Both the position numbers and the translations under genes were made by a program. A stretch of 64,000 bases of DNA from Minisyncoccia bacterium (GTDB taxonomy: Bacteria > Patescibacteriota > Minisyncoccia > Phycocordibacterales > UBA9973): the NCBI GenBank assembly GCA_039809265.1, contig JBDHUR010000001.1, positions 5,914-69,913 of the forward strand, given 5' to 3'. The notes beneath the pieces are model-generated. The model was given only the letters and a program-made list of their open reading frames with translations, did not search any database and was not told where the DNA came from. Below, piece by piece: positions 6,293 to 63,365 of the stretch (the stretch's first letter is position 1; every line of letters starts with the position of its first letter).

Positions 6293-6316
6293 CTTTTCTG
6301 CCTTAGGAAAACAAGC

Positions 6317-7224: not shown

Positions 7225-7383
7225 AACTATGTATGTATGTGTAAAAATAAAATCGACCCAAAGGCCGACAAAAAGATGAAACCGCAAAATACGGTTTTCG
7301 CCTCGTGAGGATTTGTGCGTATCCGCTACCCCATTTCTACAGCCTTGCGGGAATATATTAGCAGAATGAAAGAGCCTTGTCAA
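7225..7383 (-). promoter_or_regulatory. Possible rplJL leader / L10 autoregulatory region
   Basis: Untranslated region in-frame with rplJ ORF extension; established L10(L12)4 leader regulation in other bacteria; not verified structurally. Confidence 0.3.
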
Positions 7384-7596
7384 ACACTATTGCACAGCGT
7401 CCAGCTGGCTTTGCTGAGTTTTACCTGTCGGAGATTTTTCCACTTCACCGCTGACGAAAAGAAGCGCAATGCCAAGCATAATCATGACTATAAACATAGT
7501 GATAACTTTGAAAAAATGCTGGTTGAACATACAAACATCTTACCATAAAACAAAACCGCTTGGCACATGCAAGCGGTTTTGTTAGATTATGCTTTA

Positions 7597-11564: not shown

Positions 11565-11747
11565 ACAAATATATAGTATCATTTCTTTTGGGCAGAGGAA
11601 GAAAAACATTGTGGATAAATGCGCGAGAAAAAGTTTTTGACTTTTCTGCGTTTTTTTGATAGCATAGTGAACATCAAGTCGGTCGCGAACCCGACTTTTT
11701 TTAATAAAATTTAATACTGCCTGCCTACGCAGGAAACAATAAAATAT

Positions 11748-46497: not shown

Positions 46498-48444
46498 ATG
46501 CTATTATACAAACACATGACGGCAGGAATGCACTTAAAAAGCTTAAACAAAGCTCAGCTGGAAGCGGCACTTCACAAAGACGGGCCGCTTCTTATCGTGG
46601 CAGGTGCGGGTGCGGGCAAGACGAAGACAATAACAGAGAGGATAGTAGAGCTGGTGCATTCTGGGGTAGACGGCAGCAACATATTGGCCGTAACATTTAC
46701 AAACAAAGCTGCGAAAGAAATGCGCGAACGTGTTTGGGGTGCAGTACAAGCAGAAGGGCTGGGAGGCGGTTTACCGCTTGTTTCCACGTTCCACTCTCTG
46801 GGAGTAAAAATTTTGAAAGAAAATGCGCGGCATGTCGGCACGATAAAACATTTTGCAATACTAGACGAAGACGATGCAAAGGCTCTTATAAAGCAAGCCA
46901 TAGTTTCCATTGGCCTTGACCCAAAGCAATTTGAGCCGCGCAAATTCAAGCACATCATATCCAAAGCAAAAAACGATTTTCTTTCTGTATCTGAATACGA
47001 AGACCGCGCAGTAACAAATGTAGACAAGATGACTGCCCGCGTCTGGCATCTGTACGAAAGCTTAAAACGCAAAGAAAATGCTTTTGACTTTGACGATCTG
47101 CTTTTAGAAACTGTGCGTCTCTTGAAAAACAATCCAGAAATACTTGAAATGTATCAGGAAAGATGGAAATACATCCACATAGACGAATATCAAGATACCA
47201 ACGAGGTGCAATTCCGTCTTGCGGAATTGCTGGCAAAAAAGTACAGGAATATCTGTGTAGTTGGAGACGGAGACCAAAACATATACGGCTGGCGCGGAGC
47301 AAATGTTAAAAACATTTTGAATTTTGAAAGAGACTATCCTGATGCAAAAGTTGTACTGCTTGAAGAGAACTACCGCTCCACAGGCACGATCCTGGAAGCT
47401 GCAAATGAAGTGATAAAGAAAAACATCTTGCGCAAAGACAAAAACTTGTTTACTTCGCGCGGCAGCGGAGAAAAGATAACTCTGACAGAATGCTTTGATG
47501 AAAACGGGGAAGCAAGATACATAGCAGAGAAAATATACAGTCTGCTCTCGCGAGGCGAAGACCCAAGCGAAGTTGCCGTGCTTTACCGCGCCAACTTCCA
47601 GTCTCGTGTACTAGAAGAGGCATTGCTTATGAAAAATGTGCCGTACCAGGTCCTGGGAGTAAAGTTTTTTGAGAGAAAAGAAATAAGAGATACCTTGGCG
47701 TACTTGCGTGCAGCACTAAACAGGGAAAGCCTGAGCGATATAAAGCGCATCATAAACTTCCCAAAGCGCGGCATAGGCAAAGCAACTATTGCCAAACTTT
47801 TCTCTGCAGGTCTTGCAGACTTGCCAAATGCTATGCAAAAGAAGATAACTTCTTTTTACAATGTTTTAGATACCATAAAAGACTATGCAGGGAGCCACAC
47901 TCCGTCTGAAACCATCATTTACCTTATCAAAGCCTCTGGCATAGAAACAGAGCTTGGCCACAGCAACGAAGAAGATAAAGAAAGATTGGAAAACATAAAA
48001 GAGCTTGCCACTCTTGCCTTGAAGTACGACGCGTTGCCCGAGCAGGAAGGCTTGGAAAAACTGCTAGAAGACGCGGCGCTTGCCTCTGACCAAGATTCGC
48101 TGGATCACAAAGAAGACAAAAAGGGTGTACGGCTGATGACAGTACACGCATCTAAGGGTCTGGAATTCAAATATGTTTTTATTTCCGGCATGGAACAAGA
48201 TCTTTTCCCGCACCAAAGGAATGCTGGCTCGGCAAAGGAAGAAGCGGAGGAAGAGCGAAGACTTTTTTATGTAGCCATAACCCGCGCAAAAGAAAAACTT
48301 TTTCTCTCATACGCATCTATCCGCACAATATTCGGCTCGCGGCAGATAAATGCGCCGTCTGAATTCCTTTACGACGTACCTGAAAATCTGGTAGAAAGGG
48401 AATACGCGCACATGGGCAGAGAACGAAGTGTATATATAGACTAA
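46498..48444 (+). CDS. UvrD/PcrA-family ATP-dependent DNA helicase
   Basis: 648 aa; Walker A 'AGAGAGKTKT', 'DEYQDTN' motif II, later helicase motifs; start may be an internal ATG (~46516/46528). Confidence 0.85.
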   Translation: MLLYKHMTAGMHLKSLNKAQLEAALHKDGPLLIVAGAGAGKTKTITERIVELVHSGVDGSNILAVTFTNKAAKEMRERVWGAVQAEGLGGGLPLVSTFHSLGVKILKENARHVGTIKHFAILDEDDAKALIKQAIVSIGLDPKQFEPRKFKHIISKAKNDFLSVSEYEDRAVTNVDKMTARVWHLYESLKRKENAFDFDDLLLETVRLLKNNPEILEMYQERWKYIHIDEYQDTNEVQFRLAELLAKKYRNICVVGDGDQNIYGWRGANVKNILNFERDYPDAKVVLLEENYRSTGTILEAANEVIKKNILRKDKNLFTSRGSGEKITLTECFDENGEARYIAEKIYSLLSRGEDPSEVAVLYRANFQSRVLEEALLMKNVPYQVLGVKFFERKEIRDTLAYLRAALNRESLSDIKRIINFPKRGIGKATIAKLFSAGLADLPNAMQKKITSFYNVLDTIKDYAGSHTPSETIIYLIKASGIETELGHSNEEDKERLENIKELATLALKYDALPEQEGLEKLLEDAALASDQDSLDHKEDKKGVRLMTVHASKGLEFKYVFISGMEQDLFPHQRNAGSAKEEAEEERRLFYVAITRAKEKLFLSYASIRTIFGSRQINAPSEFLYDVPENLVEREYAHMGRERSVYID

Positions 48445-49245
48445 ATGAAACACGCAGCAAAAAAATCTTTGGGGCAAAATTTCCTGAAATCCAAAAAGGC
48501 ACTTTCGGACATGGTAAATGCGGGCAAAGTAAGCAAGGGTGACACAGTACTAGAAATCGGCCCAGGCAAAGGCGCTCTTACAGAAGTGCTGCTCCAACAT
48601 GCAGGCAAAGTAGTAGCTATAGAAAAAGACAAAAGACTAATCCCTTTGCTTGAAGAAAAGTTTGCAGGAGAAATTACAAATGGGAGACTTGAACTTATCT
48701 ATGGAGATATTTTAGAAGAGAGAATTGAGCTACCAAAAAATTACAAACTCATTGCCAACATTCCTTACTACATCACAGGGGCATTGTTTCGCATGTTTCT
48801 GGAAGCAGAGAACAAGCCGAACACCATAGTTTTCCTAGTGCAAAAAGAAGTTGCCGAGCGAGCAGTAGCCAAAGACGGTAAAGAAAGTTTGTTGTCTCTT
48901 TCCATAAAAGCATACGGCACCCCAAAATACATAAGTAAGGTTTCTAAGCAATATTTTTCTCCAGTGCCAAAAGTAGATTCTGCTATTGTTGCCGTATATG
49001 ATATTTCCAGCGACAATTTCAAAAAGGCTGGAGTATCTGAAAAACAATTTTTCCGTGTTATAAAAACCGGCTTTGCCGCTAAACGTAAAGTGCTTGCAAA
49101 AAACCTTTCAGAAATAGCTCCAAAAGATGTGGTGCATAAAGCTTGCGCGGACTTTGGACTAGACGCCAAAGTCCGCGCCGAAGACCTGCCTATGCCTGCA
49201 TGGCTTGCTCTAACAAAAGCCCTCTCATCATATATCCACAGCTAA
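48445..49245 (+). CDS. rsmA: 16S rRNA (adenine1518/1519-N6)-dimethyltransferase KsgA/RsmA
   Basis: 266 aa; 'LGQNFL', 'VLEIGPGKGALT', 'ANIPYYIT' motifs. Confidence 0.85.
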   Translation: MKHAAKKSLGQNFLKSKKALSDMVNAGKVSKGDTVLEIGPGKGALTEVLLQHAGKVVAIEKDKRLIPLLEEKFAGEITNGRLELIYGDILEERIELPKNYKLIANIPYYITGALFRMFLEAENKPNTIVFLVQKEVAERAVAKDGKESLLSLSIKAYGTPKYISKVSKQYFSPVPKVDSAIVAVYDISSDNFKKAGVSEKQFFRVIKTGFAAKRKVLAKNLSEIAPKDVVHKACADFGLDAKVRAEDLPMPAWLALTKALSSYIHS

Positions 49246-49252
49246 GACGCTC

Positions 49253-49654
49253 TTGATTTATGAAATGGAGTATACTATAGGCATGCGAAGGCTTTTATTT
49301 GTATTATTTTTCTTTGTTTTAGTATTTACTACTATCATCGGTCAAGCAATGGCCGCTGGGGCATCTCTTGGCATCCCGATCGGCGGGCTTATAACGACTA
49401 CTAATGTACCACCCAATGTTATCTGCTCAACGGGTATAGGGCCGATAACTATCAAGGTTGCTGGTAAAGGTAGCACTAGCCCATACCTAGCCACCTTTGC
49501 AGGGAATAGAACACCGCAAAATCAAGCCTCATCTGGCCGTTGGTTCCTTGGTCTTTACCAGCCTGGGTTAGGTTGCGTCCAAGAAAATGGCCCTGAGTCT
49601 CATCCATACCCCACACTAAATTGGATAATATATGGGGTTTCTGGAATGAAATAA
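49253..49654 (+). CDS. Small secreted protein
   Basis: 133 aa; signal peptide 'LLFVLFFFVLVFTTIIGQAMA'. Confidence 0.45.
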   Translation: MIYEMEYTIGMRRLLFVLFFFVLVFTTIIGQAMAAGASLGIPIGGLITTTNVPPNVICSTGIGPITIKVAGKGSTSPYLATFAGNRTPQNQASSGRWFLGLYQPGLGCVQENGPESHPYPTLNWIIYGVSGMK

Positions 49655-49656
49655 AC

Positions 49657-50595
49657 ATGCATTCATATTTGCCCAGTAAAAAATTCGTGCAGACATTCCT
49701 TATTCTTGCAGCTGTTTTTATAATCGGCTACTTTTTGTACCACATAGTTTTCAAAAAAGACGGCAAGATACCTTTCATTTCCGGTAATAAAGATTCTTCG
49801 GCTAAACTGGAGACCAAAGAAATAGTACTGCAAGACTTGATGGAAAAGGACACGGACGGAGATGGTATAAAAGACTGGGAGGAAGCACTCTGGGGCACAG
49901 ACCCAGAAAAATCAGACACGGACGGAGATGGTATTTCCGATTTTGACTATATAGAAAAGCGCCGCGAGGAAGTGCGCCAAGCTTCAGGCACTCCCGACCA
50001 AGAACTCTCAGATACCAATGCTACAGACGTTTTTACCAAGGAATTCTTTGCTGCGATAGTGGCGCTGCAACAGTCCGGCCAGCTGAACAGCCAAACACTT
50101 GCCGACCTTTCCAAACAACTTGCGGGTAACATTGGCCAGCAAAAGAGCTTGCCAGACATTTATAGCATCACGGATATAAAAATTGTATCTAACCCATCGC
50201 GAGCAGATATGCAAATATACGGCCAAGCAGTACAAGCCATGAGCAGCTCGTATTTTGCTAAAGGCATAGGCACAGAGCTGGATGTAACTTCAAATGCGCT
50301 AAGCACTGAAGACCCTGCTGAATATGCCAAGATTGCCAGCATTGCAAATGCTTATGCCGACTTTGCTGGAAAACTTGTCGCGCTCCAAACACCCGAAGAT
50401 ATAAGCGTGGATGTATTGAACCTTGCCAATAACATGCAGAAGTCCGCCAAAGCTTTGCAAAATATTTCCGCCATTCCAACCAATGAGCTGATAGGCATCA
50501 TCGGCATAAGCCAGTACAGCACATATAGCGACGACATGGTTAACTCGTTCACAAGTTTATCTAACTACTTGCAAAATAATGGTATACTGCAATAA
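49657..50595 (+). CDS. Membrane-anchored protein with thrombospondin-type-3-like Ca-binding repeats
   Basis: Start at MHSYLPSKK; TM 'FLILAAVFIIGYFLY'; repeats 'DTDGDGIKDWEE','DTDGDGISDFD'. Confidence 0.5.
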   Translation: MHSYLPSKKFVQTFLILAAVFIIGYFLYHIVFKKDGKIPFISGNKDSSAKLETKEIVLQDLMEKDTDGDGIKDWEEALWGTDPEKSDTDGDGISDFDYIEKRREEVRQASGTPDQELSDTNATDVFTKEFFAAIVALQQSGQLNSQTLADLSKQLAGNIGQQKSLPDIYSITDIKIVSNPSRADMQIYGQAVQAMSSSYFAKGIGTELDVTSNALSTEDPAEYAKIASIANAYADFAGKLVALQTPEDISVDVLNLANNMQKSAKALQNISAIPTNELIGIIGISQYSTYSDDMVNSFTSLSNYLQNNGILQ

Positions 50596-50598
50596 GTA

Positions 50599-53325
50599 AT
50601 GCAAAGATACAAAAGAAAATTACATACTGCGCTATCTCTTGTACTAGGAATATCTGTCTTTGCGCAAAGCTTTATTGCAATCATAACACCACAGACAGCA
50701 TACGCGCAAAATGCTAGTGCGAGCGCCTTTGCTGGACTAGGTTCCATCGCCGGAGCAGGAGTTGGCTGTCTTTTGGGTAATGCTTTCTCAGGAACCGGAC
50801 TCTTTAGCTCTGCTGACGGAAACACAACTGCGGGAATGGAAGTACCTACTGGAGACAAGGGGACTAGAGGAAATACTAGCGCACAGAAACAAAAAGAAAA
50901 CTGCCTAGACGCCATAGCTTATGCTGCAGCAAAAGCTTTACTGAAAAAATTTACTCAAGCTACTATAGTCTGGATAAACAGCGGTTTTAAAGGCGAGCCT
51001 CTGTATATAAAAAATCCTGAGTCATTTTTTAAAAGCATAGCGAACGAACAACTGGGTGGAATTATTTCCACATTAAGCAATACAGACAAGGTTCCATTTG
51101 GTAAAGACTTAGCAAGAAGCATTATCCTCTCCACGCAAGCAACTTTTGCAAAAAAGATTGAATACAATTTAAATAAAATAATAAGTCCAGATAGGGTGTA
51201 TCGTTTTCAAGCAGACTTTTCTGCTGGAGGCTGGGACGGCTGGTTAGGAGCGACCCAATTCCCACAAAACAATACTATCGGGGCACACATCGTAACCGCA
51301 GACGAGGTTACATATAAACTCTCTGGTACAGCTAAAGCGCCCGCCGAATATTTACAAGATGAATTAAGTCAAGGTATGGGATTTCTTGGACTAAAGAAGT
51401 GCGTTCAAACTTCAGATGGAAAAACAGCTGCCGACTATAATTACGAAGAATCAACAAATGAATCAATAGAAGACATAGATCCAAAAAAAATCACATGTAC
51501 TCGTTGGGAAACAATTACCCCTGGAACAGCTATTGCAAACCAAATGAACCTAACATTAGGCACATCTCAGCGACAACTAGAACTTGCAGATGAGCTAAAT
51601 GAAAGTATTGCTGGGGTATTTGATGCTCTTTTTAGTCAACTTTTAAACAAAGGTCTAGCCTCTTTGGGCAACAGCTCTTCTTCTAGTGGATATAATGTGG
51701 GTATCTATGGTGGTTATGGAAACAACTCTAATAACTCTAGCCTAAATAGTAACGGTAACCCATACGGGGTAGAGGATCCAGACCAATGGTATAACCAAAA
51801 CCCTACATTTAATATTTGGCATGACCTACAGACTATTATAGACGTTCAGCAAAAAGTCTACGATGATCTTCAAAAAGAAAATTCTGCATTACAAAATCTT
51901 ACAACTGCAATATATGAACTAGACTTTTGTGTGCCTGGACCAAACCCACTATGGTACGATAACGCGCAACAAACAGTAAACGATTTCTTTGGAGATATCC
52001 CTCAAAAGGCTGATGATCTTGGAGATAAGTTACGAAAAGCAAATAAATGGTTTGACCCAGGGGGTATGGTTATGGCTTCTACAGGCTGGGCAAACGAACT
52101 AGGTTTAAACCCACCAGGGTCAAACGGCTGGTCTCAACAAAGAATACAAGAACTGTATGCAAAATTCCTAAAGCAAGCCATAAACTTCTCTGGCGAAGAT
52201 GACGAAACAATGACCTCAGAACATATATCTTCTTTGGGTAGCATTGTGCTTGAACAATATGCTTCAAAAATAAGCTCAAAATACGGCGTATCTGGCTTAC
52301 ACCAAGCTGGAGAATATATGCCGACAGTGGCAGCAAGCTTGCCAAAGCTATACAACAACATACCTAGATACTTAAACCAAATTGACACCAACAACACAAA
52401 GATGGATGACTTTGAAGGTATTATCCGCCAACTTCAATCTATAAGCGTTGCGGTTAAAGATATCCCAGAGGACCCAGACAACCAAACAAGTGCCGACAAA
52501 ACCGCAATAACTACATATCTAAGAATTATAGGTAGCATGGCACAATATATGGCAAGCGAAAGTGTTATACAAACACTGGAAGACGAACTATTTGCTATAA
52601 ATGGCATATACGACATGGTGGCAAATGGAAATAATAGCTTGATAAATCAATGCAAGACAGAACTACGCACAACAAGTCCGACTGGAATAGACTCTTCTAA
52701 TATAAAAGGTTTACGTTTTGCTTACCCTACAGACTTGTTGCCACAGTCTATACAAGATGCATACACAGGCAACCTTGGTGGATATATGACACATCAAATG
52801 TACAAATTCGGTACTTCATATCTTCCGGGAACTTTCTACAAGAGCAATGTAAAGCAGACTAGCTGGCAGTGGCCTTCCCTAGACTCATTAACACACCAGT
52901 ATGATATGAGATCATATTTTACACCAAGCTTTTCTCAAAAATCTGCATTATACGATCAACGAGCGGGTAAATATAACCCAGATATTCCAGGACTATGGGC
53001 ATGGTGCACGGCAGAAGGATTCCAATACACAACAGTAGTAAATAATGCAGTTCAAGCAACAAATCTTGGAATACAATTAGGGCAATCGTACACATTTACG
53101 ATACCAGCGCCGTCCAATAATTCAGGCTTTGGAACAACTCCAGCTCTTTGTAATCCTAGTTTACCTGACAACAATGGTACGGTGATAAAAAACGACCCTA
53201 ATATTAGTGACTTTACATTAAATAGAGCGCTAGACTTTATAGATGTTACAAGTTCTGGTTTGCAAGTTAATAGACCGGACCAAACTAACCTTGCTGGATT
53301 CGAATCATTCCTTGGAATTTATTGA
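50599..53325 (+). CDS. Large (908 aa) secreted protein, first gene of the T4SS-like block
   Basis: Signal peptide 'LSLVLGISVFAQSFIAIITPQTAYAQNASA'; Asn/Gly/Ser-rich; no enzymatic motif. Confidence 0.55.
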   Translation: MQRYKRKLHTALSLVLGISVFAQSFIAIITPQTAYAQNASASAFAGLGSIAGAGVGCLLGNAFSGTGLFSSADGNTTAGMEVPTGDKGTRGNTSAQKQKENCLDAIAYAAAKALLKKFTQATIVWINSGFKGEPLYIKNPESFFKSIANEQLGGIISTLSNTDKVPFGKDLARSIILSTQATFAKKIEYNLNKIISPDRVYRFQADFSAGGWDGWLGATQFPQNNTIGAHIVTADEVTYKLSGTAKAPAEYLQDELSQGMGFLGLKKCVQTSDGKTAADYNYEESTNESIEDIDPKKITCTRWETITPGTAIANQMNLTLGTSQRQLELADELNESIAGVFDALFSQLLNKGLASLGNSSSSSGYNVGIYGGYGNNSNNSSLNSNGNPYGVEDPDQWYNQNPTFNIWHDLQTIIDVQQKVYDDLQKENSALQNLTTAIYELDFCVPGPNPLWYDNAQQTVNDFFGDIPQKADDLGDKLRKANKWFDPGGMVMASTGWANELGLNPPGSNGWSQQRIQELYAKFLKQAINFSGEDDETMTSEHISSLGSIVLEQYASKISSKYGVSGLHQAGEYMPTVAASLPKLYNNIPRYLNQIDTNNTKMDDFEGIIRQLQSISVAVKDIPEDPDNQTSADKTAITTYLRIIGSMAQYMASESVIQTLEDELFAINGIYDMVANGNNSLINQCKTELRTTSPTGIDSSNIKGLRFAYPTDLLPQSIQDAYTGNLGGYMTHQMYKFGTSYLPGTFYKSNVKQTSWQWPSLDSLTHQYDMRSYFTPSFSQKSALYDQRAGKYNPDIPGLWAWCTAEGFQYTTVVNNAVQATNLGIQLGQSYTFTIPAPSNNSGFGTTPALCNPSLPDNNGTVIKNDPNISDFTLNRALDFIDVTSSGLQVNRPDQTNLAGFESFLGIY

Positions 53326-53459: not shown

Positions 53460-56400
53460 ATGTTTAAGAAAATCGTACTAATAGCTACAATATTTGGCAT
53501 CTTCGGCGGCTTATTTACACCAGCGTTTTCTGTGAAAGCGTGGGCAGAGGCTGACTTACAAAAAATAACTATTTCTATTAGTGTTAATACCATACAAGAA
53601 GATAAATCTAATGGTAAATACTCAGCAATCATACCTGTAGTTATTAAATCAAATTTTAAAGAATTTGGAGATCACACTATCCATCTAGATATCTACAGCG
53701 CAGCTCCAGGAGGAAAAGCTGAGAAGAAGGTCAGTAAAGAATTCACTCCTCATATAGACAAACCGAAAGATGAGTTTATAGAACAAACATTTCTAACACA
53801 GACAGATGCGGTTTTAGAAAAAGGTTATGGCTATTCGGCTATTGCTTTCATTTCATTACCACAACTAGCTGGGCAGACTACTCCTGGACAATGGATTATT
53901 GGACCGAACGGTATTCCCGTTGTCTCCTTTCCACCCAAGACAACAAATACTTATACTCCACCAATATCCAACACCTCAATTTTTACAATAAAAACCGACG
54001 GCTCTACAAGCATTGCGAATGAAGATAGTAGTGGTACACAAAATACAGCACAAAACGTAACCTCAAACGAACCTTCTGCTCTTCCAGAATGTAATATTCT
54101 TTACTCCAGCACATGGCCTGGTTGTATTGCTCGAGTTATATATTATATTTTTTTTATACCAACATCTTTTGTGTTTGGACTCAGTGGTCAGTTTTTAGAC
54201 TGGGGAACAAGTTTCACTATAGACTCAAATTCATACAAAGGCAGTGCAGCTACTTTCATTGAATCTGGATGGAAAATAACACGTGATATTGCAAACATAC
54301 TATTCATATTCATACTCCTCTGGGTTGGCATAGGCACAATACTAGGCTCACACAGTGTAGATGCAAAGAAGACAATAGGTATGGTGATAATTATAGCTCT
54401 CCTGTTAAATTTCAGCTTGTTTTTTGCCAGAGTAATAATAGACGCATCTAATATTCTGGCTGGGGTTTTTTATAATCAAATAGACGTGCAAGATGAAGGA
54501 TCCAACAACCAATGGGTATTCAGTGATAAAAATGTAAAAAATATTTCCACGGCTATAGTTAGTAAATTTAACCCACAAAAGCTTTTTGCTCAAGCTGGAA
54601 CACTTAAGATAAACACCGGCACAGGTGTAAAGGATGGATCAACAGATGGTGGAACGAATGGTGAACCAGCCCCCGGACAATTCATAATAATCACACTCAT
54701 AATGTCTGTTATAAACTGTATAGGTATTTGGGTATTTTTCTCTGTTGGCTTCCTATTTCTTTCTCGTGTAGCAGGACTTTGGCTTGCTATGATATTTGCA
54801 CCATTGGCATTCATATCATACATACTTCCTTCTAGTTCTGCGGGAGCGCTGGGAGACATGCATCATAGTAAGTGGTGGGGCAACCTTGTTCGCTTGGCAA
54901 TGATGGTGCCAATGTTTATGTTCTTTATGTATCTCATACTCATGTTCATGAATACAAACTTCATAGCAAATGCAATGGGAGACAAAACCACAACACTTGC
55001 GATACTTGGAGTAGTAATACCGTTGCTCATCATTGTAGTACTTCTACAAAGAGCAAGGAAAATAGTGGTAGACTGGTCTGGAGAACTTGGTAAAATGGCA
55101 GCACAGGCAGGCACAGCTGTGGCTGGATTTAGTGTGGGCGCACTGACAGGCGGAGCAGCGATGCTTGGCCGTGGTACTATTGGCAGACTCGCCAACAAAG
55201 CTGCGAGCAGTGAAGAGTTAAAAGATAGAGCAGCAAAAGGAGACAGGATGGCAAAAATGCAACTAAAAAGCGCAGAATTTCTATCAAAATCAAGTTTTGA
55301 TGCTCGCAACACAACGGTTGGAAATAAAGTTTCTCAAGCAACAGGCATGAACCTGAATAAGGGTTTATCTTTTGCCGGTCTGAATACCAAATCCACAGAA
55401 GGTGGCTGGGTAGGACTACAGGCAAAAAAGGCAGAAAAGGAAGCAAGTAGATGGAAAGACAGTTATGACCACCACGCTTATGAACAAGAAGAAGAAAAAG
55501 TAAACGCCGAAAAAGAAAAGCAATCAAAAAACAAAGATATAAAAGAAGATATACAAAACAAAATACGTGTGGAGAAAGCAGCCATAACAACAATGGCAGA
55601 TGGATCTCAAGAAAAAAAGGACGCACAGCGACGTGTTCAAAAACTAACAGAAAGCTTATCTATAGTTGATACAAACATTAGAGCATATGAGAAAGGTGGT
55701 AAAACATATGCCATAAACTCAAACGGAGAATATGTAGATAAAAACGGTAAAGTTGTGACAGACAAGAAAGACGCACACATGGAAGAGTCTTTGGGTATAC
55801 AAAAGATGGAGAAAAACAAAGAGCGCTTAAAAACAGCGAGACAAAAAAACCACGAATCTGTTTTGCGTCGAAAATCTGGTAAACGATATCTGGATGACGA
55901 AAGAGATGAATTGGGTAATATAAAGAAATTTGGTGAAGAAATAACCCCTGGTTTGGAAAAGAAACTGAGAAAAGAAAAAGACGAAAAAAATAAAGAAAAA
56001 AATGAAGCCCTGCAACACAGGCTTGATATAGGAAAAGATATAAATGATGTAAATCAAAAAATGAAAGAAGCGGCAAAAAAAGTAAGCGAGGCACAAAAAA
56101 AGGGAGATAAAGCACTTATAAAATCTACAAGCGACGCACTTAAAGGTTTAGTAGAACAAAGAAAGCAGCTAGAAAAATCTCAAAATGATGCAAAAGAAAA
56201 ATCTGACACCTTAGTAAAAGAATTTAATAAGGTTTCCAACAAGCTTGGTAAAGTAGAAGTAGCTAATCTTAAAACAAACTATAACGGTGTAAGGCAAGTA
56301 CTAAGAGAACTTGGCGAAGGTGCGGCTAGGGGCGCAGCAGTAGGTGCAGCAGTAGGGACTGCTATTCCTGGAGCAGGCACGTTTGCTGGAGCTGGAGTAG

Positions 56401-56594
56401 GAGCAGTCATGGGTGGACTTAGACAAGTACTTGAATACAGTGGTACCACGAACAGAAGTATTGCAAATGGACACATTCCACACTACCATGGTAGTGGCTC
56501 AACATACAGAGAGCCTAGCGGTGGTGGACAAGACACACCATCGGCATCTTCACACAGTGGAGGAGGTGGAGGAGGGGATCATTCACACCACTAA
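53460..56594 (+). CDS. VirB6/TrbL-like polytopic membrane protein with N-terminal secreted domain and long Lys/Glu coiled-coil C-terminal tail
   Basis: Start at MFKKIVLIATIFG; signal peptide, ~230-aa extracytoplasmic domain, 6-7 TM helices between aa ~245 and 560, ~500-aa hydrophilic tail ending Gly/His-rich. Confidence 0.55.
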   Translation: MFKKIVLIATIFGIFGGLFTPAFSVKAWAEADLQKITISISVNTIQEDKSNGKYSAIIPVVIKSNFKEFGDHTIHLDIYSAAPGGKAEKKVSKEFTPHIDKPKDEFIEQTFLTQTDAVLEKGYGYSAIAFISLPQLAGQTTPGQWIIGPNGIPVVSFPPKTTNTYTPPISNTSIFTIKTDGSTSIANEDSSGTQNTAQNVTSNEPSALPECNILYSSTWPGCIARVIYYIFFIPTSFVFGLSGQFLDWGTSFTIDSNSYKGSAATFIESGWKITRDIANILFIFILLWVGIGTILGSHSVDAKKTIGMVIIIALLLNFSLFFARVIIDASNILAGVFYNQIDVQDEGSNNQWVFSDKNVKNISTAIVSKFNPQKLFAQAGTLKINTGTGVKDGSTDGGTNGEPAPGQFIIITLIMSVINCIGIWVFFSVGFLFLSRVAGLWLAMIFAPLAFISYILPSSSAGALGDMHHSKWWGNLVRLAMMVPMFMFFMYLILMFMNTNFIANAMGDKTTTLAILGVVIPLLIIVVLLQRARKIVVDWSGELGKMAAQAGTAVAGFSVGALTGGAAMLGRGTIGRLANKAASSEELKDRAAKGDRMAKMQLKSAEFLSKSSFDARNTTVGNKVSQATGMNLNKGLSFAGLNTKSTEGGWVGLQAKKAEKEASRWKDSYDHHAYEQEEEKVNAEKEKQSKNKDIKEDIQNKIRVEKAAITTMADGSQEKKDAQRRVQKLTESLSIVDTNIRAYEKGGKTYAINSNGEYVDKNGKVVTDKKDAHMEESLGIQKMEKNKERLKTARQKNHESVLRRKSGKRYLDDERDELGNIKKFGEEITPGLEKKLRKEKDEKNKEKNEALQHRLDIGKDINDVNQKMKEAAKKVSEAQKKGDKALIKSTSDALKGLVEQRKQLEKSQNDAKEKSDTLVKEFNKVSNKLGKVEVANLKTNYNGVRQVLRELGEGAARGAAVGAAVGTAIPGAGTFAGAGVGAVMGGLRQVLEYSGTTNRSIANGHIPHYHGSGSTYREPSGGGQDTPSASSHSGGGGGGDHSHH

Positions 56595-56636
56595 TTCAAC
56601 ACTTGAAAAATGAAAAGTAGGGTATACTAAGAACAT

Positions 56637-57476
56637 ATGGACAATCAAGAAATTATTCAAAAAATACAAGACCTATATGCTAGCGTTCCTGGTGCGCTAC
56701 AAAAAGCTATAGTTTCTTCAGATTATCAAAACAAAATTGTAGATATAGGCAAAAACAACAAACTAACAGTTGCACAGCTTGGGGACTTGGAACTTGTCAC
56801 AACATTTGTCATGCTCGGAGCAACTTCACCTAATAATTATAAAAGTGAGATTGCCGAAAAGCTTGGAATACAGGACGAAGCCGTAGTGAATAAAATAGTG
56901 GATGATGTAAACACACAAATATTTTCTACTATTCGTAATGAGCTAAAGGAAATAAATACACCAATAGAAGAAGAGGATGATGATAGCGAGACTTTTTGGC
57001 ATCACAGCGAGGAAGAGATGGATGCTGCCGGGTTTCAAGCAAACAACACGGCTGAAACAAACACCACATCCATACAGACTGTAAGCGCTAAAGACCAAGC
57101 GGAGCTAGAGAAATCTGGAATAGAGATAGAGAAAACACGCCCAACTTCCGAGGAATATGTGAAGGCAACAGTACTACCAAACTCTGGACTACCAGCATCT
57201 GGACTTCAGACACGCGAAAATATCCTAAATGGCATAGAGCACCCTACGGAAAGCAAGCCTTCATTTATAGACAAGCAATTCTCTGGTGTTTATACCATGC
57301 CAACAAAAGAGACAACATATACACCAAAACCTGTGGCGCCTGCGCAGACAGGCGCCACAGGTAAAGCAGCTGGCCCCGCTCCAATACCTGCACCAAAAGC
57401 GCCATCGACAGACTTGCCAACAAATACAGCAGGCGAGCCACCAGCAAAAATTGATCCTTATAGGGAAATAATATAA
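56637..57476 (+). CDS. Hypothetical acidic, Pro-rich cytoplasmic protein within the T4SS-like block
   Basis: 279 aa, no TM. Confidence 0.45.
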   Translation: MDNQEIIQKIQDLYASVPGALQKAIVSSDYQNKIVDIGKNNKLTVAQLGDLELVTTFVMLGATSPNNYKSEIAEKLGIQDEAVVNKIVDDVNTQIFSTIRNELKEINTPIEEEDDDSETFWHHSEEEMDAAGFQANNTAETNTTSIQTVSAKDQAELEKSGIEIEKTRPTSEEYVKATVLPNSGLPASGLQTRENILNGIEHPTESKPSFIDKQFSGVYTMPTKETTYTPKPVAPAQTGATGKAAGPAPIPAPKAPSTDLPTNTAGEPPAKIDPYREII

Positions 57477-57493
57477 TAGCTGAAAGCTGCCTT

Positions 57494-57910
57494 ATGCAAT
57501 TCAAAGTCCCACAATTTATAGATGTTGAAGACAAAATTTTTGGACCTTTTACGTTCCGACAATTTTTGTATCTGGCTGGAGGAGCGGGGATATGCTTTTT
57601 ACTTTACAAAACTCTGCCCCTCGTTGTAGCTATAATTATAATGTTGCCGGTCATAGCTCTTTCTCTTGCTTTGACTTTCTATAGAGTAAACGAAAAACCT
57701 TTCATATATATACTTGAGGCATATATAGGCTACCTTGGCAAAAACAAGCTGTACGTTTGGAAAAAAGCTCCGCCGGAAAAGAAAAGCACAGACAAGACAG
57801 ACGCTGCACAGAAACCGGCAGCAGAGAGTTACGTGCCAAAGCTTTCTGAAAGCAAGCTAAAAGACATATCTTGGAGTTTGGATGTGCTGGATGTAAATAA
57901 AGGCAATTAA
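57494..57910 (+). CDS. Small two-TM protein, VirB3/PrgI-like
   Basis: 138 aa; 'FTFRQFLYLAGGAGICFLLY' resembles the VirB3 'L(T)RP..FLGVP' region; lies upstream of virB4 as in most T4SS loci. Confidence 0.45.
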   Translation: MQFKVPQFIDVEDKIFGPFTFRQFLYLAGGAGICFLLYKTLPLVVAIIIMLPVIALSLALTFYRVNEKPFIYILEAYIGYLGKNKLYVWKKAPPEKKSTDKTDAAQKPAAESYVPKLSESKLKDISWSLDVLDVNKGN

Positions 57911-57939
57911 CAATTAAAAAACAAAATTGGTGATACAAT

Positions 57940-58605
57940 GTGCCATATATGGCTTTGAATGCTAGAGCAACTCAAGATTTTGTACCGATACAAGAGGTCA
58001 GAGACGGCGTCATAATACTAAAAGACGGCGGGGTACGAGCTGTTTTGCTTGCTTCTTCTATAAACCTCTCTCTCAAGTCCGCGGATGAACAGCAGGCTAC
58101 CCTTTTACAGTTTCAGACTTTTTTGAACTCGTTAGACTTTTCTACACAAATATCTGTCCAGTCCCGAAGGCTAGACATACGTCCATACTTAAACTTGCTG
58201 GAAAACAGGATGAAAGAACAGCTTGAGCCGTTGCTTAAAATACAAACAAGGGAGTACATAGAGTTTATAAGGTCTTTTACAGATAGTGTAAATATAATGA
58301 CAAAAAGCTTTTTCATAACCGTACCGTACACCCAACCTGCACTTTCTGCCGGCGGAGCAGTTAGCGGACTGAAGAATTTGATCCCTGGGCAAAAAAGCCA
58401 GCCGGATAAAAAAAGCACTGAGCAGCTGGACTTTGAAGAGAAAAGGAGTCAACTGGACCAGCGCATAGGGGTAATACAGCAGGGTTTGTCTCGTGTAGGT
58501 ATCCGCACAGTGGAGCTTGGGACAGAAGAGATAGTGGAGCTATTTTACAAAATTTTCAACCCAGGAGAAGTTACACAATCTATAAAACTAGATACGCAAA
58601 GCTAA
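57940..58605 (+). CDS. VirB4/TrbE N-terminal domain encoded as a separate ORF
   Basis: 221 aa; 'VRDGVIILKDGGVRAVLLASSINLSLKSADEQQ' matches the VirB4 N-terminal 'LEDGSIMSIARIDGVAFELEE' region; 'FFITVPY' matches VirB4 'LTLVVYP'. Confidence 0.6.
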   Translation: MPYMALNARATQDFVPIQEVRDGVIILKDGGVRAVLLASSINLSLKSADEQQATLLQFQTFLNSLDFSTQISVQSRRLDIRPYLNLLENRMKEQLEPLLKIQTREYIEFIRSFTDSVNIMTKSFFITVPYTQPALSAGGAVSGLKNLIPGQKSQPDKKSTEQLDFEEKRSQLDQRIGVIQQGLSRVGIRTVELGTEEIVELFYKIFNPGEVTQSIKLDTQS

Positions 58606-58609
58606 CAAC

Positions 58610-60445
58610 ATGGCAATTTTAGACTTCTTAAAAAAGAAAACAGACGCTGGAAATAATAAAAGGGCGGTTTTGCCTGTTTTACCTACAGAAATATACGAAG
58701 CGGCAACATTAGAGTTCAAAGATATTATAGCGCCTTCGGCGCTAAAGATAGAGCCGAAGGCGCTAAACCTTGGAGACAAAATGGCACGCACTTTCTTTGT
58801 CATATCTTATCCAAGGTATTTGTCAGACAACTGGTTCTCTCCGATCATAAATTTGGACAAGATATTTGATGTATCCATCTTCATACACCCCATAGAAACA
58901 GCCAAAATTTTGCGAGACTTCCAGAAAAAGGTAGCGGAAGTGCAAAGCCAGATAAGCATCCGCGAAAGCAAAGGTCTGGTGCGAGACCCGATGCTGGACA
59001 CTGCATACCAAGACCTAGAATCTTTGCGAGACAACCTACAGCAAGCGCAAGAGAAGATATTTGATGTTGGGCTTTATATTACAGTTTACGGCAATAACGA
59101 AAACGACTTGTTCAAGATAGAAAACGAGATAAAGTCTATATTGGAATCAAAGCTGGTATACTTGAAACCTGCCCTTTTCCAGCAAGAGGAAGGCTTTGAC
59201 TCTGTGATACCCATAGGCAATGACATACTGAACGTGCACCAAAAACTAAACTCCGAACCGCTTTCATCCATCTTCCCATTTGTTTCTTTCGACCTAACTT
59301 CCGACAAAGGAATACTTTACGGGGTGAATAGGCACAACTCTTCACTTGTTATATTTGACAGATTTTCTCTTGAAAACTACAACTCTATCATCTTTGCAAA
59401 GTCAGGCTCTGGAAAATCTTATGCTACGAAGCTGGAAATACTTCGTACACTCATGTTTGACACAGAAGTTATTGTCATAGACCCGGAAAGAGAGTATGAG
59501 TATTTAGCTGAAGCAGTGGGTGGAAGATACTTCAACATATCACTGTCTTCGCAACATCACATAAACCCTTTTGACTTGCCGGTGCCGCGAGAAGACGAAA
59601 CCCCGGCAGATGTGCTTCGTTCTAATGTCATAAACCTCGTTGGCCTATTCCGTATCATGCTTGGCGGATTGACCCCAGAAGAAGACTCTATAGTAGACAG
59701 AGCAATAACAGAAACTTACGCAATCAAAGACATAACTGCAGACTCCGACTTCTCCAACATTGAACCGCCGCTTTTGACAGACTTTGAGATGGTGCTTGCT
59801 GGCATGGATGGATCAGAGTCTCTGATACAACGCCTAACCAAGTTCACTAGAGGCTCTTGGTCTACATTTCTAAACCAGCCATCAAACGTAGACATAAATA
59901 AAAAATTCGTAGTGTTCTCCGTGAGAGACATGGAAGATGAGCTGAAGCCGGTAGCAATGTACATAGTCACGCACTTTATCTGGAACGCCGTGAGAAAGAC
60001 ACTGAAAAAACGCCTCTTAGTGGTGGATGAAGCTTGGTGGATGATGAAGTCAGACGACACAGCCTCTTTCCTTTACTCTATAGCCAAGCGAGGCAGAAAG
60101 TACTACTTGGGACTTTGCACCATAACCCAAGACGTGGGAGACTTCATGCGCAGTCCATACGGCGTACCCATCGTTACAAACAGCTCCCTACAACTCCTAT
60201 TGAAACAGTCTCCGTCTTCTATAGACCTGCTGCAAAAAACCTTTAATCTTACAGACGAAGAAAAATATCTGCTACTGGAATCCAATGTCGGGGAAGGGAT
60301 ATTCTTTGCCGGACTAAAGCATGTTGCTATAAAGATAATATCTTCATATACAGAAGACCAAATAATAACTTCCGACCCATCGCAGGTGTTAGCAATAAAG
60401 AAATCAAAGGATGAACTAGAAGCAGCGGAACGCGGTGTAAAGTAA
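58610..60445 (+). CDS. VirB4/TraC/CagE-family T4SS ATPase (middle plus C-terminal ATPase domain)
   Basis: 611 aa; 'FFVISYPRYLSDNWFSPII' (VirB4 'IYSFREYP' region), Walker A 'AKSGSGKS', Walker B 'LLVVDEAWWMM', downstream 'LGLCTITQD' motif. Confidence 0.8.
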   Translation: MAILDFLKKKTDAGNNKRAVLPVLPTEIYEAATLEFKDIIAPSALKIEPKALNLGDKMARTFFVISYPRYLSDNWFSPIINLDKIFDVSIFIHPIETAKILRDFQKKVAEVQSQISIRESKGLVRDPMLDTAYQDLESLRDNLQQAQEKIFDVGLYITVYGNNENDLFKIENEIKSILESKLVYLKPALFQQEEGFDSVIPIGNDILNVHQKLNSEPLSSIFPFVSFDLTSDKGILYGVNRHNSSLVIFDRFSLENYNSIIFAKSGSGKSYATKLEILRTLMFDTEVIVIDPEREYEYLAEAVGGRYFNISLSSQHHINPFDLPVPREDETPADVLRSNVINLVGLFRIMLGGLTPEEDSIVDRAITETYAIKDITADSDFSNIEPPLLTDFEMVLAGMDGSESLIQRLTKFTRGSWSTFLNQPSNVDINKKFVVFSVRDMEDELKPVAMYIVTHFIWNAVRKTLKKRLLVVDEAWWMMKSDDTASFLYSIAKRGRKYYLGLCTITQDVGDFMRSPYGVPIVTNSSLQLLLKQSPSSIDLLQKTFNLTDEEKYLLLESNVGEGIFFAGLKHVAIKIISSYTEDQIITSDPSQVLAIKKSKDELEAAERGVK

Positions 60446-60491
60446 CAGTTTTCCCTCGTTTTTTTGCTCAAAGTATTTTATACTTAGATAG

Positions 60492-61529
60492 ATGAAGATA
60501 AGCATATTTGCAAACTCGTTTAGAAAGTTTGCCTTAAAAGCGGTGTTGGCTTTTGCTTTTTTGTCTATACTTATTTCACCAGCCAACGCTTTGGCTCAAT
60601 CTTTGCTTGATTCTTCTTTTACTGCCAACGATGTATCGGTGGAACTTTCACCGGAAATACCGGCACCGAACCAGACTTTGACGATATCTTTAACAAGCTA
60701 CACGGTAGACCTAGATAAAGCGCGAATGACTTGGACACAAGACGGCAAGATAAAAAACAGTGGGACCGGCATAAAAGAGTTCAGTGTGCAAGTGGGTGAC
60801 GTGGGCTCAACAACAACCATAGATGTATCTATAGTTATAAATGGATTGAATAGATTTGACAAAAGGATAGTTGTCAGCCCCTCAGAAGTAGACATGTTGT
60901 GGGAAGCGGTAGACTCTTATGTTCCACCGTTCTATGAAGGAAAAGCACTGCCTTCATCCGAAGCTGTAATAAAAGTTGTGGCAATACCCAACAACAAGAC
61001 AAACAATACCGACATTCAAACCGGCAACTTTGTTTACAATTGGAAAAAGAACTTTGCAGCAGACCAAAGCGCATCTGGCTTTAGTAAAAATAGCTACGTT
61101 TTCAAGGCAAGCTACCTGAATGCAGAAGAAACAATATCTGCAAATGCAGCCTCAGTATCTGGCAACAGTGGCGGGGAAGGAAGCGTAACCATAGTGACAG
61201 GTAAACCTAAAATAATATTCTATGAAGACGCAGCAGGCATCGGCCCTGTATATGCCAGTGCCTTGAACCAAGGCTATAGACTGACCAACAACGAAGCCAC
61301 GGTCGTAGCCGTGCCGTATTTCTTCTCTGTGAGCAATCCTGCCGCCAAAGACTTGCTTTACAGATGGAGCATAAACAACAACAACATAGACACGCCTTCA
61401 CCGGCAAATACACTTGTCATAAAAAGCGCCGGGGAAACAGGACAAGCAAAAGTTGGCTTGCACTTGGAGTCCGCAAGTAAACTTTTCCAATCCATAGACC
61501 AGACATTTTTTGTAGACATAATAAAGTAA
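60492..61529 (+). CDS. Secreted protein (345 aa) in the T4SS-like block
   Basis: Signal peptide 'ALKAVLAFAFLSILISPANALA'; beta-rich composition. Confidence 0.5.
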   Translation: MKISIFANSFRKFALKAVLAFAFLSILISPANALAQSLLDSSFTANDVSVELSPEIPAPNQTLTISLTSYTVDLDKARMTWTQDGKIKNSGTGIKEFSVQVGDVGSTTTIDVSIVINGLNRFDKRIVVSPSEVDMLWEAVDSYVPPFYEGKALPSSEAVIKVVAIPNNKTNNTDIQTGNFVYNWKKNFAADQSASGFSKNSYVFKASYLNAEETISANAASVSGNSGGEGSVTIVTGKPKIIFYEDAAGIGPVYASALNQGYRLTNNEATVVAVPYFFSVSNPAAKDLLYRWSINNNNIDTPSPANTLVIKSAGETGQAKVGLHLESASKLFQSIDQTFFVDIIK

Positions 61530-61535
61530 AGCAGT

Positions 61536-63365
61536 ATGACTTTCAAAAAGATAATGAAAAATAAGGCGATGATAGCAATGAGGATTTTTATTGTTGCATT
61601 CATCGCATCCTTGCCATTTATCTCTCGTGCAGTATCTGGAACAGAAATGCAGACCAACGAACTGACAGACACTTCTGTACTAATAACCGGACGCATATTA
61701 AACCCAGACAACCAAAGCGTAAAAATAGGCACAGTAGAGCAAAACAACCCGCAAGCTTCATATGTATATACCAACCCGTTTACCTTGCTGGATGATGCCA
61801 GTGTGCCGCCAATAGAGGGTAGGACAGGAAATACTACAGGGTATGGGAACACAAGTGTGGGGGAAAGAACTGGTAAAAACAATACTACAGGATATGGTAA
61901 TACAAGCGTGGGAGAAAAAGGTGTTTACAATAACACTTCAGCTTATGGAAACACTGGTGTTGGAGAAAAAGGCTCCGCATACAACAGTGTGGTGTACCAA
62001 ACCATCTCTGGCCTTGCACCAAATACTACATACTGCTCTGTGGTAGTAGATGCCAGCGATCCTTCCAATACACCTATATATGGCAGTGAGATATGCTACA
62101 CCACACTTGCAACAGGCGCTTCATATAAAAATGGGGAACTGACAAGTGTGGTATTAGACACACAGTCAATGACAGATACTAGTGCAACGATAAAGTTTAT
62201 GGTAAATCCAGACGGAAAAGCACTCGGACTTAGCCTAAAATATGGCGTTGGCAAAAAGGACTTTACAGACAGCGACTATACCAAAGACATAGGGGAATTC
62301 TTCCGCACTGCGACGACCACTTCCAACAGCCTGCCTGCAACAGCAGAGATCAAAAATCTAGAGAAAGATACAACTTACTATTATGAAGTTTACAACACAG
62401 ACACAAAAGAAGTTTACCACGACAACTTATTCACAACAGCTGCTTCTGCCGGCACAGTTATAAACCAAAACAGCAGTAATACCACAACAACAACTACATG
62501 CGTACCAGGGGAGTACTGCTTGCTTGCTCCGCTTCCGGGACTTTCAAAGATAAATGTACAAACGACAGGTATAGGCGGATACCTTGCAATAATATTCAAG
62601 ATAGGTATAGGCCTTGCTGGAGTATTGGCTGTGGTGATGCTGGTAGTTGGAGGCATACAGTACATGTCTACAGATGCGTTTTCTGAAAAAGCAGATGGCA
62701 AGTCTAGAATGATGAATGCAATCATTGGGCTTCTGCTTGTCCTTGGTGCATGGGTTATACTAAATACACTAAATCCAAATTTGCTCATATTCAATCTGGA
62801 TTTACAGAAGGTTTCTATAACAGTTGACCCTTCTCTCATAGATAGTGATGAAGCAGAGACACAACCACCAACTGGTGCTAACTACACATCATATCCATAT
62901 AAAAATCGAGACAAAATAGACGATGTTTTTCCAACACCTAAAACATCTGATATGCTTGGCACACTCAAAACTTTAAATGTCGATGTAAGTGGTTCAAACA
63001 GTTCAAAACCCATCTGTGATACAGTTGGACAAACAGGCTGCACAGCATTGGCTGGCATACCTTCAAAGGTTACTGTTGGGCTGCAAAAAATTAGGACAAA
63101 GTGTCCTAATTGTGAACTTACAATAACTGGCGGAACAGAATTTTGGCTTCATAAATCACATGGTCCTGGAAAAGATAAGATTGACTTAAGAAACAACTCC
63201 CGGGCCTCAAACTTTGTAAAATATGTGACTAGCGGTAAAAAAATAGGGCAGATAACTGGGTGGGGTGTACTGTATGTTACAGATGGAATAGAGTTTGTTG
63301 ATGAGGGAAATCATTACCATGTCTGGGGTTGGAATAATGACCATGCTTCAAGTTATAATAAATAA
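61536..63365 (+). CDS. Composite surface protein: signal peptide, GYGNTSVGE repeats, FN3-like modules, VirB2/TrbC-like double-TM hairpin, C-terminal LAS-metallopeptidase-like domain
   Basis: 609 aa; 'GGYLAIIFKIGIGLAGVLAVVMLVVGGIQYM...GKSRMMNAIIGLLLVLGAWVIL' hydrophobic hairpin; 'HKSHGPGKDKIDL' and 'EGNHYHV' resemble H-x(n)-D / H-x-H zinc motifs. Confidence 0.5.
   Translation: MTFKKIMKNKAMIAMRIFIVAFIASLPFISRAVSGTEMQTNELTDTSVLITGRILNPDNQSVKIGTVEQNNPQASYVYTNPFTLLDDASVPPIEGRTGNTTGYGNTSVGERTGKNNTTGYGNTSVGEKGVYNNTSAYGNTGVGEKGSAYNSVVYQTISGLAPNTTYCSVVVDASDPSNTPIYGSEICYTTLATGASYKNGELTSVVLDTQSMTDTSATIKFMVNPDGKALGLSLKYGVGKKDFTDSDYTKDIGEFFRTATTTSNSLPATAEIKNLEKDTTYYYEVYNTDTKEVYHDNLFTTAASAGTVINQNSSNTTTTTTCVPGEYCLLAPLPGLSKINVQTTGIGGYLAIIFKIGIGLAGVLAVVMLVVGGIQYMSTDAFSEKADGKSRMMNAIIGLLLVLGAWVILNTLNPNLLIFNLDLQKVSITVDPSLIDSDEAETQPPTGANYTSYPYKNRDKIDDVFPTPKTSDMLGTLKTLNVDVSGSNSSKPICDTVGQTGCTALAGIPSKVTVGLQKIRTKCPNCELTITGGTEFWLHKSHGPGKDKIDLRNNSRASNFVKYVTSGKKIGQITGWGVLYVTDGIEFVDEGNHYHVWGWNNDHASSYNK

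Follow-up and report, generated by a model that had tools for sequence, protein, structure and literature searches.

Type IV secretion systems (T4SSs) of Patescibacteria have been described as carrying VirB4, TrsD, PrgI, VirB6 and VirB2-like genes, with VirB6 encoded mostly near virB4 (Quinonero-Coronel et al. 2025, PMC12102498). The same work, which reports virB6 to be essential in Ca. Southlakia epibionticum, found no more than 480 VirB6 homologs, against 2,272 TrsD proteins, and gave no domain architecture for them (PMC12102498). A separate study has named the extended-VirB6 proteins as a class, defined by a VirB6-type hydrophobic core together with at least one large central or C-proximal hydrophilic domain; the extra domains have no known function (PMC12857230). 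Here we analysed a 64,000-nucleotide stretch of a Minisyncoccia bacterium contig (JBDHUR010000001.1, positions 5,914 to 69,913; hereafter the window) and, within it, one complete open reading frame (ORF) of 1044 amino acids (aa). Our favoured reading, which we hold as probable rather than firm, is that its product is the VirB6-equivalent polytopic subunit of a chromosomal, vertically inherited, Gram-positive-type (MPF_FATA-like) T4SS in a Paceibacteria/Nomurabacteria-like patescibacterium, and that this subunit is an extended VirB6 with a platform role.

The genomic setting of the ORF is that of a Patescibacteria MPF_FATA-like T4SS locus and matches the published description, the phylum and the locus type being those of the VirB6 genes surveyed there (PMC12102498). 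A Gram-positive-type VirB4, TrsD, PrgI/VirB3, the VirB6-like protein and a VirB2-like pilin are all encoded within 53460-63365 (Table 1). Scanning one genome per species, we found relatives of the VirB6-like protein in at least 406 genomes, from which 80 loci were fetched for the comparison of gene order. Across these species loci the order is UvrD-KsgA-324-908-VirB6-like-279-PrgI-TrsD-VirB4-345-pilin, where numbers stand for the neighbours of that length in aa. PrgI is present in 69 of the 80 loci and VirB4 in 61, and most of the loci that do not contain them stop shortly past the VirB6-like gene. UvrD and KsgA adjoin the T4SS block both in the window (46498-53325 region) and in 29-33 of the 80 species genomes. 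Because the rest of the window is filled with housekeeping genes (PNPase, NusA, RNase Y, trigger factor, CCA-adding enzyme, tRNAs), we regard it as chromosomal and not as part of a plasmid. The other genes examined in the block have at most two hydrophobic segments each, so none of them could be VirB6.

Structure comparison supports a VirB6-like fold. An AlphaFold2 (AF2) model of the core (residues 196-665), built from a 120-sequence alignment, had a pLDDT of 82.4 and a pTM of 0.73. In a Foldseek search of this model against ~350,000 PDB chains, ranks 1-4 were all TrwI, the VirB6 of plasmid R388, with a probability of 0.85-0.93, ~300 aligned columns, 15-18% identity and E values of 0.08-0.18. 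Two structure-comparison methods, covering ~350,000 and 48,000 chains, both ranked T4SS VirB6-family chains first (220-300 aligned residues), and the fold resemblance takes in the solved structures of both TrwI and DotA. With TrwI and Agrobacterium tumefaciens VirB6 (Pfam TrbL, PF04610), which include the best Foldseek matches, the protein shares a hydrophobic, all-helical core, a Gly-rich segment past the last hydrophobic helix and a gene that lies beside those for VirB3 and VirB4. It differs from them in being three times longer (1044 versus 342 aa), through a signal peptide, an immunoglobulin (Ig)-like N-terminal domain and a 513-aa tail, in giving no Pfam TrbL match, and in serving a monoderm system without VirB5 or VirB7-11. 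DotA, the VirB6-like protochannel subunit of the Legionella Dot/Icm system (PDB 9ngy), has only 9% identity to the protein, belongs to a diderm effector-translocating system and carries extra domains that are periplasmic and partnered with IcmX. PrgH of pCF10, the VirB6-like protein of an MPF_FATA system, occupies the corresponding gene position, directly upstream of PrgI and a CD1110-type VirB4 (compare prgH-prgI-prgJ), and belongs to the same T4SS class (PMC12102498), whereas it is 266 aa long, has neither the N-terminal domain nor the tail and shows no detectable profile similarity to our family. With structure and gene context carrying more weight than the sequence tests considered below, we think it very likely that the protein is the VirB6 equivalent of this system.

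The protein also has the composition that defines the extended-VirB6 class, its core being accompanied by hydrophilic domains of ~190 aa (N-terminal) and 513 aa (tail). Like the members from MPF_FA and other systems (TcpH of pCW3, ConG, Orf15, F TraG and rickettsial RvhB6), which reach 700-900+ aa, it has at least five hydrophobic helices and large hydrophilic extensions (PMC12857230), and TcpH escapes Pfam TrbL just as our protein does. To TcpH, however, the family could be joined only by a marginal profile alignment of 54 columns (hhalign against the single sequence, 0.023), and the tails show no similarity. From the class as a whole it differs in a tail that is predicted to be confidently helical instead of 'unstructured', in the family's conserved juxtamembrane module, C-terminal histidines and secreted Ig-like N-terminal domain, and in belonging to a FATA-like and not an FA-type system. 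An earlier reading made from the letters of the DNA (the sequence-only reading) had called the three-part architecture of signal peptide and outer domain, membrane core and tail unusual. The architecture is real and conserved but lies inside a recognised class (PMC12857230), and it is unusual solely in that VirB6 proteins of the MPF_FATA type normally have ~300 aa (PrgH, 266 aa). What seems to be undescribed is this layout in a FATA-like system, the size of the family, the juxtamembrane module, the confidently folded tail and the conserved terminal histidines.

A full-library phmmer search with the core as query returned 12,701 cluster representatives at 50% identity with E <= 1e-3, of which 1,607 had E <= 1e-30. 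In contrast to the VirB6 set of the 2025 survey, this family largely escapes the Pfam TrbL models. Typical matches are proteins of 800-1200 aa in which the core begins at residue 100-350. Among 119 database homologs, the N-terminal domain has a median length of ~200 aa and the core one of ~320 aa, and a tail of 300-550 aa with ~30% charged residues follows. A set of 71 complete ORFs from genomes of distinct species, with a median length of 904 aa, had the same layout. Because it recurs in both sets, the three-part layout is a family trait beyond chance. Named relatives come from Paceibacteria, Nomurabacteria, Moranbacteria, Wolfebacteria and 'Patescibacteria group' metagenome-assembled genomes, and at least one carries the NCBI annotation 'type IV secretion system protein'. 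Conservation differs strongly between regions: mean identity to our protein is 43% in the hydrophobic core (223-531) and 36% in the juxtamembrane module (532-660), against 15% in the N-terminal domain (30-205) and 14% in the distal tail helices (661-940). For this reason we delimit the conserved unit as residues 206-660 (~455 aa), which includes two invariant cysteines, an invariant Arg436, the Gly-rich stretch past the last helix and the motif SFD.R.T..G.

The ORF starts at the ATG at 53460. An in-frame TTG at 53406, which would lengthen the protein by 18 residues, was rejected: all ten full-length members of its 90% cluster, the representative aside, are called at 1044 aa, and the N-terminal consensus of the family (MKK followed by a hydrophobic run) fits the ATG. 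Scanning for promoters and terminators around the gene gave nothing exceeding the shuffled expectation. By inspection, residues 1-29 resemble a signal peptide, as the sequence-only reading had noted, and a similar N-terminus is found in 56 of the 71 orthologous ORFs. The extracytoplasmic domain proposed at ~230 aa is present but smaller, the extracytoplasmic-looking region running from residue 30 to about 215 (~190 aa). In a Foldseek search with the full-length model, its predicted beta-sandwich gave matches to Ig-like domains of GH2 enzymes, to ApaG and to a carbohydrate-binding module (probability <=0.99, E 0.04-0.2); such matches are generic, their E values are not significant and we did not take them as homology. 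The two invariant cysteines, C211 and C222, lie just ahead of the first hydrophobic helix and probably form an extracytoplasmic disulfide.

The core itself contains seven Kyte-Doolittle (KD) hydrophobic segments (223-243, 277-297, 307-327, 406-433, 437-457, 479-499 and 511-531), in line with the six to seven closely packed helices proposed before. All seven are long helices in the AF2 model and the polytopic pattern is conserved across the family. The sequence-only reading had named fewer than four transmembrane (TM) helices as grounds for giving it up; there are at least five hydrophobic helices. How many of these span the membrane is uncertain (five, six or seven), and this count bears on our favoured reading, as six spans would place the tail outside the cell. 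Segment 223-243 is weakly hydrophobic (family mean KD 1.22), and AF2 draws residues 405-445 as a single continuous helix of 41 residues where hydropathy splits the same stretch in two. Averaged over the family, the loops 244-276, 328-405 and 500-510 are acidic, and the loops 298-306 (with the invariant K303), 434-436 (with the invariant R436) and 458-478 are basic, as is the stretch past the last helix. A model with five TM helices, in which 223-243 does not span and 405-445 is one helix, fits every loop charge and gives an N-out/C-in protein with a large outward loop. The seven-TM model likewise puts the C-terminus inside, and the six-TM model, which puts it outside, has a worse loop-charge score. 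A. tumefaciens VirB6 is reported to have been found experimentally to have five spans, N-out/C-in, with a large outward loop, the same arrangement as in the five-TM model and like the one that is likely for our protein.

The tail is therefore likely to be cytoplasmic, as had been proposed: the tail (net charge +12) and the juxtamembrane module (+10) are positive, the N-terminal domain (-5) is negative, and both the five- and the seven-TM models place the C-terminus inside, so that the proposal is favoured by family-averaged loop charges, if short of proof. The alternative that keeps the VirB6-like core and turns the tail outward would require an even number of spans; coiled coil and Gly/His tip would then project from the surface of the epibiont, for host contact or stabilisation of mating pairs, as in F TraG. 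An extended VirB6 with an extracytoplasmic C-terminal domain does exist, in the form of F-plasmid TraG, whose domain is periplasmic. The ambiguous helix count, with the weak segment 223-243 and the two renderings of 405-445, leaves room for this arrangement, the positive charge of the short loops 298-306 and 434-436 speaks against a simple seven-TM model, and sequence change in the distal tail keeps pace with that in the outward N-terminal domain (14% versus 15% identity). However, only the worse-scoring six-TM model yields it, the last hydrophobic helix is followed by a conserved basic cluster and a net charge of +10, 73% of family members have a tail of net positive charge, and the tail contains neither cysteines nor cell-wall anchoring motifs. 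We therefore consider an extracellular tail unlikely.

Whether the core is a VirB6 at all was addressed at the level of sequence, and here the results weigh against our favoured reading. By curated thresholds the protein is not a member of the VirB6/TrbL families (PF04610; TrbL_2, PF19478; TrbL_3, PF19590); the full protein, the core alone and the majority-rule consensus of the family gave no TrbL or VirB6 match in Pfam or NCBIfam, even at E <= 10. The family profile matched that of TrwI weakly in hhalign (P/E 0.012 over 130 columns, residues 399-544 against TrwI 138-272), with values rising to 0.07-0.08 after trimming to the core, and gave P 0.15 against the PrgH profile. Comparisons with PrgH (as single sequence and as profile), TrwI and TcpH all remained weak or null, and neither core trimming nor changed alignment modes helped; these hhalign runs used no secondary-structure scoring and reference alignments of low diversity. 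The structural resemblance, too, has its limits, as no Foldseek match reached E <= 1e-3 and the TM-scores were low (0.24-0.37). As controls, known VirB6 proteins were run against Pfam, where TrwI scored 170.7 bits, PrgH 29 bits and TcpH gave no match: accepted Gram-positive VirB6 proteins (TcpH, PrgH) are equally hard to detect by Pfam. Only two of the 48 relatives that we scanned hit Pfam TrbL, both below its threshold. One, P0105 (E 2.6e-61 to our protein), reached 25.7 bits (E 1.1e-5) where the cutoff is 25.9, in a register with which the TrwI alignment agrees; the other, P0106, scored 22.2 bits (E 1.3e-4). Weak precomputed TrbL_3 matches exist for three more (P0019, P0036, P0062), and a literature search on TrbL_3 returned nothing. 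A search of PDB sequences with phmmer and the family profile yielded only low-complexity matches of the Lys/Glu-rich tail (Mediator 15, TolA, SMC and others), which we rejected as compositional.

These results could also be accommodated by a lineage-specific polytopic protein that merely co-occurs with T4SS genes, be it an analogue of some other inner-membrane component, an anchor of the surface proteins encoded upstream or an uptake channel, with a likeness to TrwI and DotA that is generic to long helical bundles. In its favour are the failed or marginal TrbL/VirB6 sequence tests, the Foldseek E values of 0.08-0.18 and a conserved module (206-660, ~455 aa) that exceeds the orthodox VirB6 size. 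Against it, two structure-comparison methods independently put VirB6-family chains first, the gene sits in the prgH position just upstream of PrgI-VirB4, and the other examined genes of the block stop at two hydrophobic segments each. Several members independently give the weak TrbL/TrbL_3 matches and essentially none match another membrane-protein family, apart from one isolated match to Nucleos_tra2_C (E 0.0035). The unrelated transporter family that the sequence-only reading had named as a reason to abandon it did not appear for our protein in Pfam, NCBIfam or PDB. We consider a protein other than VirB6 improbable, more so than an outward tail, and the VirB6/TrbL likeness proposed by the sequence-only reading has held up, through the TrwI fold and the strict PrgI-TrsD-VirB4-pilin synteny and not through a direct sequence match.

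Beyond the core, the protein continues in its tail (residues 532-1044). In the juxtamembrane module the glycines are nearly invariant and conservation is close to that of the core. The coiled-coil tail of ~500 aa rich in Lys and Glu that had been predicted was recovered: Lys makes up 17% and Glu 10% of positions 561-940, 65 windows are heptad-like where 200 shuffles gave 12 +/- 10 (maximum 47), and AF2 predicts helices of 40-78 residues with pLDDT 80-90 within a series that runs 672-711, 717-745, 780-806, 831-881 and 884-961 and is broken by a small beta tip (747-777). In the distal tail the sequence is divergent across the family, yet length and charge are kept. We consider it very improbable that the tail represents a membrane-remodelling module of the PspA/Vipp1 (ESCRT-III) kind joined to VirB6, for although Foldseek matched residues about 672-961 to 6zvs_A and 6zvr_DB with a probability of 1.00 and a target-normalised TM of 0.61-0.69 over 127-173 columns, the E values were 0.37-0.42 at 14% identity, neither our protein nor the 48 relatives matched PspA_IM30 in Pfam, long helical hairpins resemble one another in general and the sequence of the tail lacks conservation. 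The Ala/Gly-rich segment and the final GGGGGGDHSHH noted before are both present, the protein ending in ...SGGGGGGDHSHH. The segment at 953-989 scored 17.4 bits against the glycine-zipper family PF13436 (E 0.0038), below the cutoff of 27 and so outside formal membership; this match occurs in 1 of 48 relatives, and only part of the family has the Ala/Gly segment. Across the family, Gly and His are enriched at the C-terminus. His makes up 7.6% of the final 30 aa against 0.97% overall, and 54% of members have it as their last residue (64 of the 119 homologs, 38 of the 71 species ORFs). The terminal His is often preceded by a motif resembling A.H.I.M..K.D.G.K.H, and a second group of members ends in a Lys-rich DDKK.

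Analogy with TrwI, DotA and PrgH suggests that the core (residues about 216-540) forms an oligomer, probably a pentamer, a model that comes from work on R388, Dot/Icm and PrgH-PrgF (PMC12857230; bioRxiv 10.64898/2025.12.18.695078). It may then take a central place in the membrane complex, over the module of PrgI/VirB3 and the TrsD-VirB4 ATPase, and act as a platform or protochannel for assembly of the VirB2-like pilins encoded downstream. The signal peptide and the fast-evolving Ig-like domain would face outward, the domain decorating the outer face, and the conserved basic, Gly-rich juxtamembrane module with its helical tail of 300-550 aa would hang in the cytoplasm and might make contact there with the ATPases, or with substrates or cargo. 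A bolder version makes module and tail a built-in cytoplasmic adaptor, tethering or gating the VirB4/TrsD motor of a secretion system on which patescibacterial epibionts depend for life on their hosts, and taking over the docking and coupling roles of the type IV coupling protein, VirB8 and VirB10, which are not recognisable in the conserved block; the positively charged or His-rich C-terminus might then mimic a T4SS substrate signal or bind metal. We regard this as a doubtful extension. The idea of the sequence-only reading that the tail is a scaffold replacing missing inner-membrane parts is speculation, and the four conserved neighbours of 324, 908, 279 and 345 aa could equally supply these roles.

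Table 1 Features of the extended VirB6-like protein and of the surrounding T4SS block, in window coordinates
Feature	Position	Strand	Basis
324-aa secreted-looking protein, bacterial TSP3 repeat	49621..50595		conserved upstream neighbour
908-aa secreted-looking conserved protein	50599..53325	+	N-terminal hydrophobic segment; 55/80 loci; no Pfam/NCBIfam match
Extended VirB6-like T4SS subunit, complete ORF, 1044 aa + stop	53460..56594	+	public records with the same 1044-aa gene call
Residues 1-29, signal-peptide-like N-terminus (MFKK, hydrophobic stretch, AWA/E)	53460..53546	+	inspection and hydropathy
Residues 36-185, predicted Ig-like beta-sandwich, poorly conserved	53565..54014	+	AF2 strands, pLDDT about 55-84
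Residues 186-222, Ser/Thr/Asn linker with invariant C211 and C222 just ahead of first hydrophobic helix	54015..54125	+	two family alignments
Residues 223-531, hydrophobic helical core, VirB6-like part (seven hydrophobic segments and ~75-aa loop 328-405)	54126..55052	+	Kyte-Doolittle, AF2
Residues 532-660, conserved positively charged juxtamembrane module (basic cluster QRARK, Gly-rich segment, motifs SFD.R.T..G and GG)	55053..55439	+	family alignments
Residues 661-952, Lys/Glu-rich helical coiled-coil-like tail	55440..56315	+	AF2 pLDDT 80-90 over most, heptad signal
Residues 953-989, Ala/Gly-rich glycine-zipper-like segment	56316..56426	+	sub-threshold Pfam PF13436; low AF2 confidence
Residues 990-1044, low-complexity Gly/His C-terminus ending GGGGGGDHSHH	56427..56591	+	sequence
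279-aa neighbour, no TM, Pro/Ala-rich C-terminus	56637..57476	+	no Pfam/NCBIfam match; between VirB6-like gene and PrgI in 35/80 loci
PrgI/VirB3-like protein, 138 aa, 2 TM	57494..57910	+	Pfam PF12666, 43.6 bits; downstream of VirB6-like gene in 69/80 loci
TrsD-like protein, stand-alone VirB4 N-terminal-like module, 221 aa	57940..58605	+	NCBIfam TrsD and VirB4 N-terminal; 63/80 loci; PMC12102498
VirB4 ATPase, CD1110 (Gram-positive) type, 611 aa	58610..60445	+	NCBIfam NF045971, 378 bits; Pfam P-loop_TraG; 61/80 loci
345-aa secreted-looking conserved protein	60492..61529	+	conserved neighbour
609-aa protein with embedded VirB2-like T4SS pilin domain (residues 353-412)	61536..63365	+	Pfam PF18895, 35.6 bits; NCBIfam pilin-like; 39/80 loci

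Several features of the block deserve mention in their own right. VirB4 is encoded as two adjacent genes (57940-58605 and 58610-60445), a split shared by 61-63 of the 80 loci and consistent with the abundance of TrsD reported for Patescibacteria. The 609-aa pilin protein is far larger than ordinary VirB2 pilins: besides the pilin domain, which has two TM segments, it has a signal at the N-terminus, a domain resembling FN3/purple-acid-phosphatase-N and, at the C-terminus, a domain of ~190 aa with Cys. Inside the coding part for the Pro/Ala-rich C-terminus of the 279-aa protein lies a perfect 15-bp inverted repeat (57329-57362) with 10 G-C pairs and a 4-nt loop, flagged on the minus strand by a terminator-like scan. 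At one related locus (L084), the T4SS block is interrupted at 5336-7923 and 11568-11819 by toxin-antitoxin-, abortive-infection- and mobile-element-like genes (DUF6922/AbiEii, NTP_transf_2, ORF6N and a GIY-YIG gene, the last standing between the 226-aa neighbour and PrgI). Elsewhere in the window, the minus-strand gene at 26899-28230 encodes a 442-aa protein with FG-GAP repeats and a Por_Secre_tail domain (C-terminal sorting in type IX secretion), an odd combination in a patescibacterium presumed to be monoderm. Two adjacent large plus-strand ORFs of 645 and 1205 aa (39688-41625 and 41667-45284) have no Pfam match, and the longer of them coincides with a strongly positive AT skew.

As the system had already been described, these findings refine current understanding and do not overturn it. 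In the sole patescibacterium amenable to genetics, epibiotic growth reportedly requires the T4SS (cited in PMC12102498 and PMC12857230). In the survey, only some of the Patescibacteria with a T4SS yielded a VirB6, a shortfall that was put down to sequence divergence (PMC12102498). Many of these 'missing' VirB6 subunits probably belong to the family described here, from which a dedicated profile could be built. The predicted folded tail and the conserved terminal histidines would offer concrete, mutable handles on the function of the extra domains of extended-VirB6 proteins.

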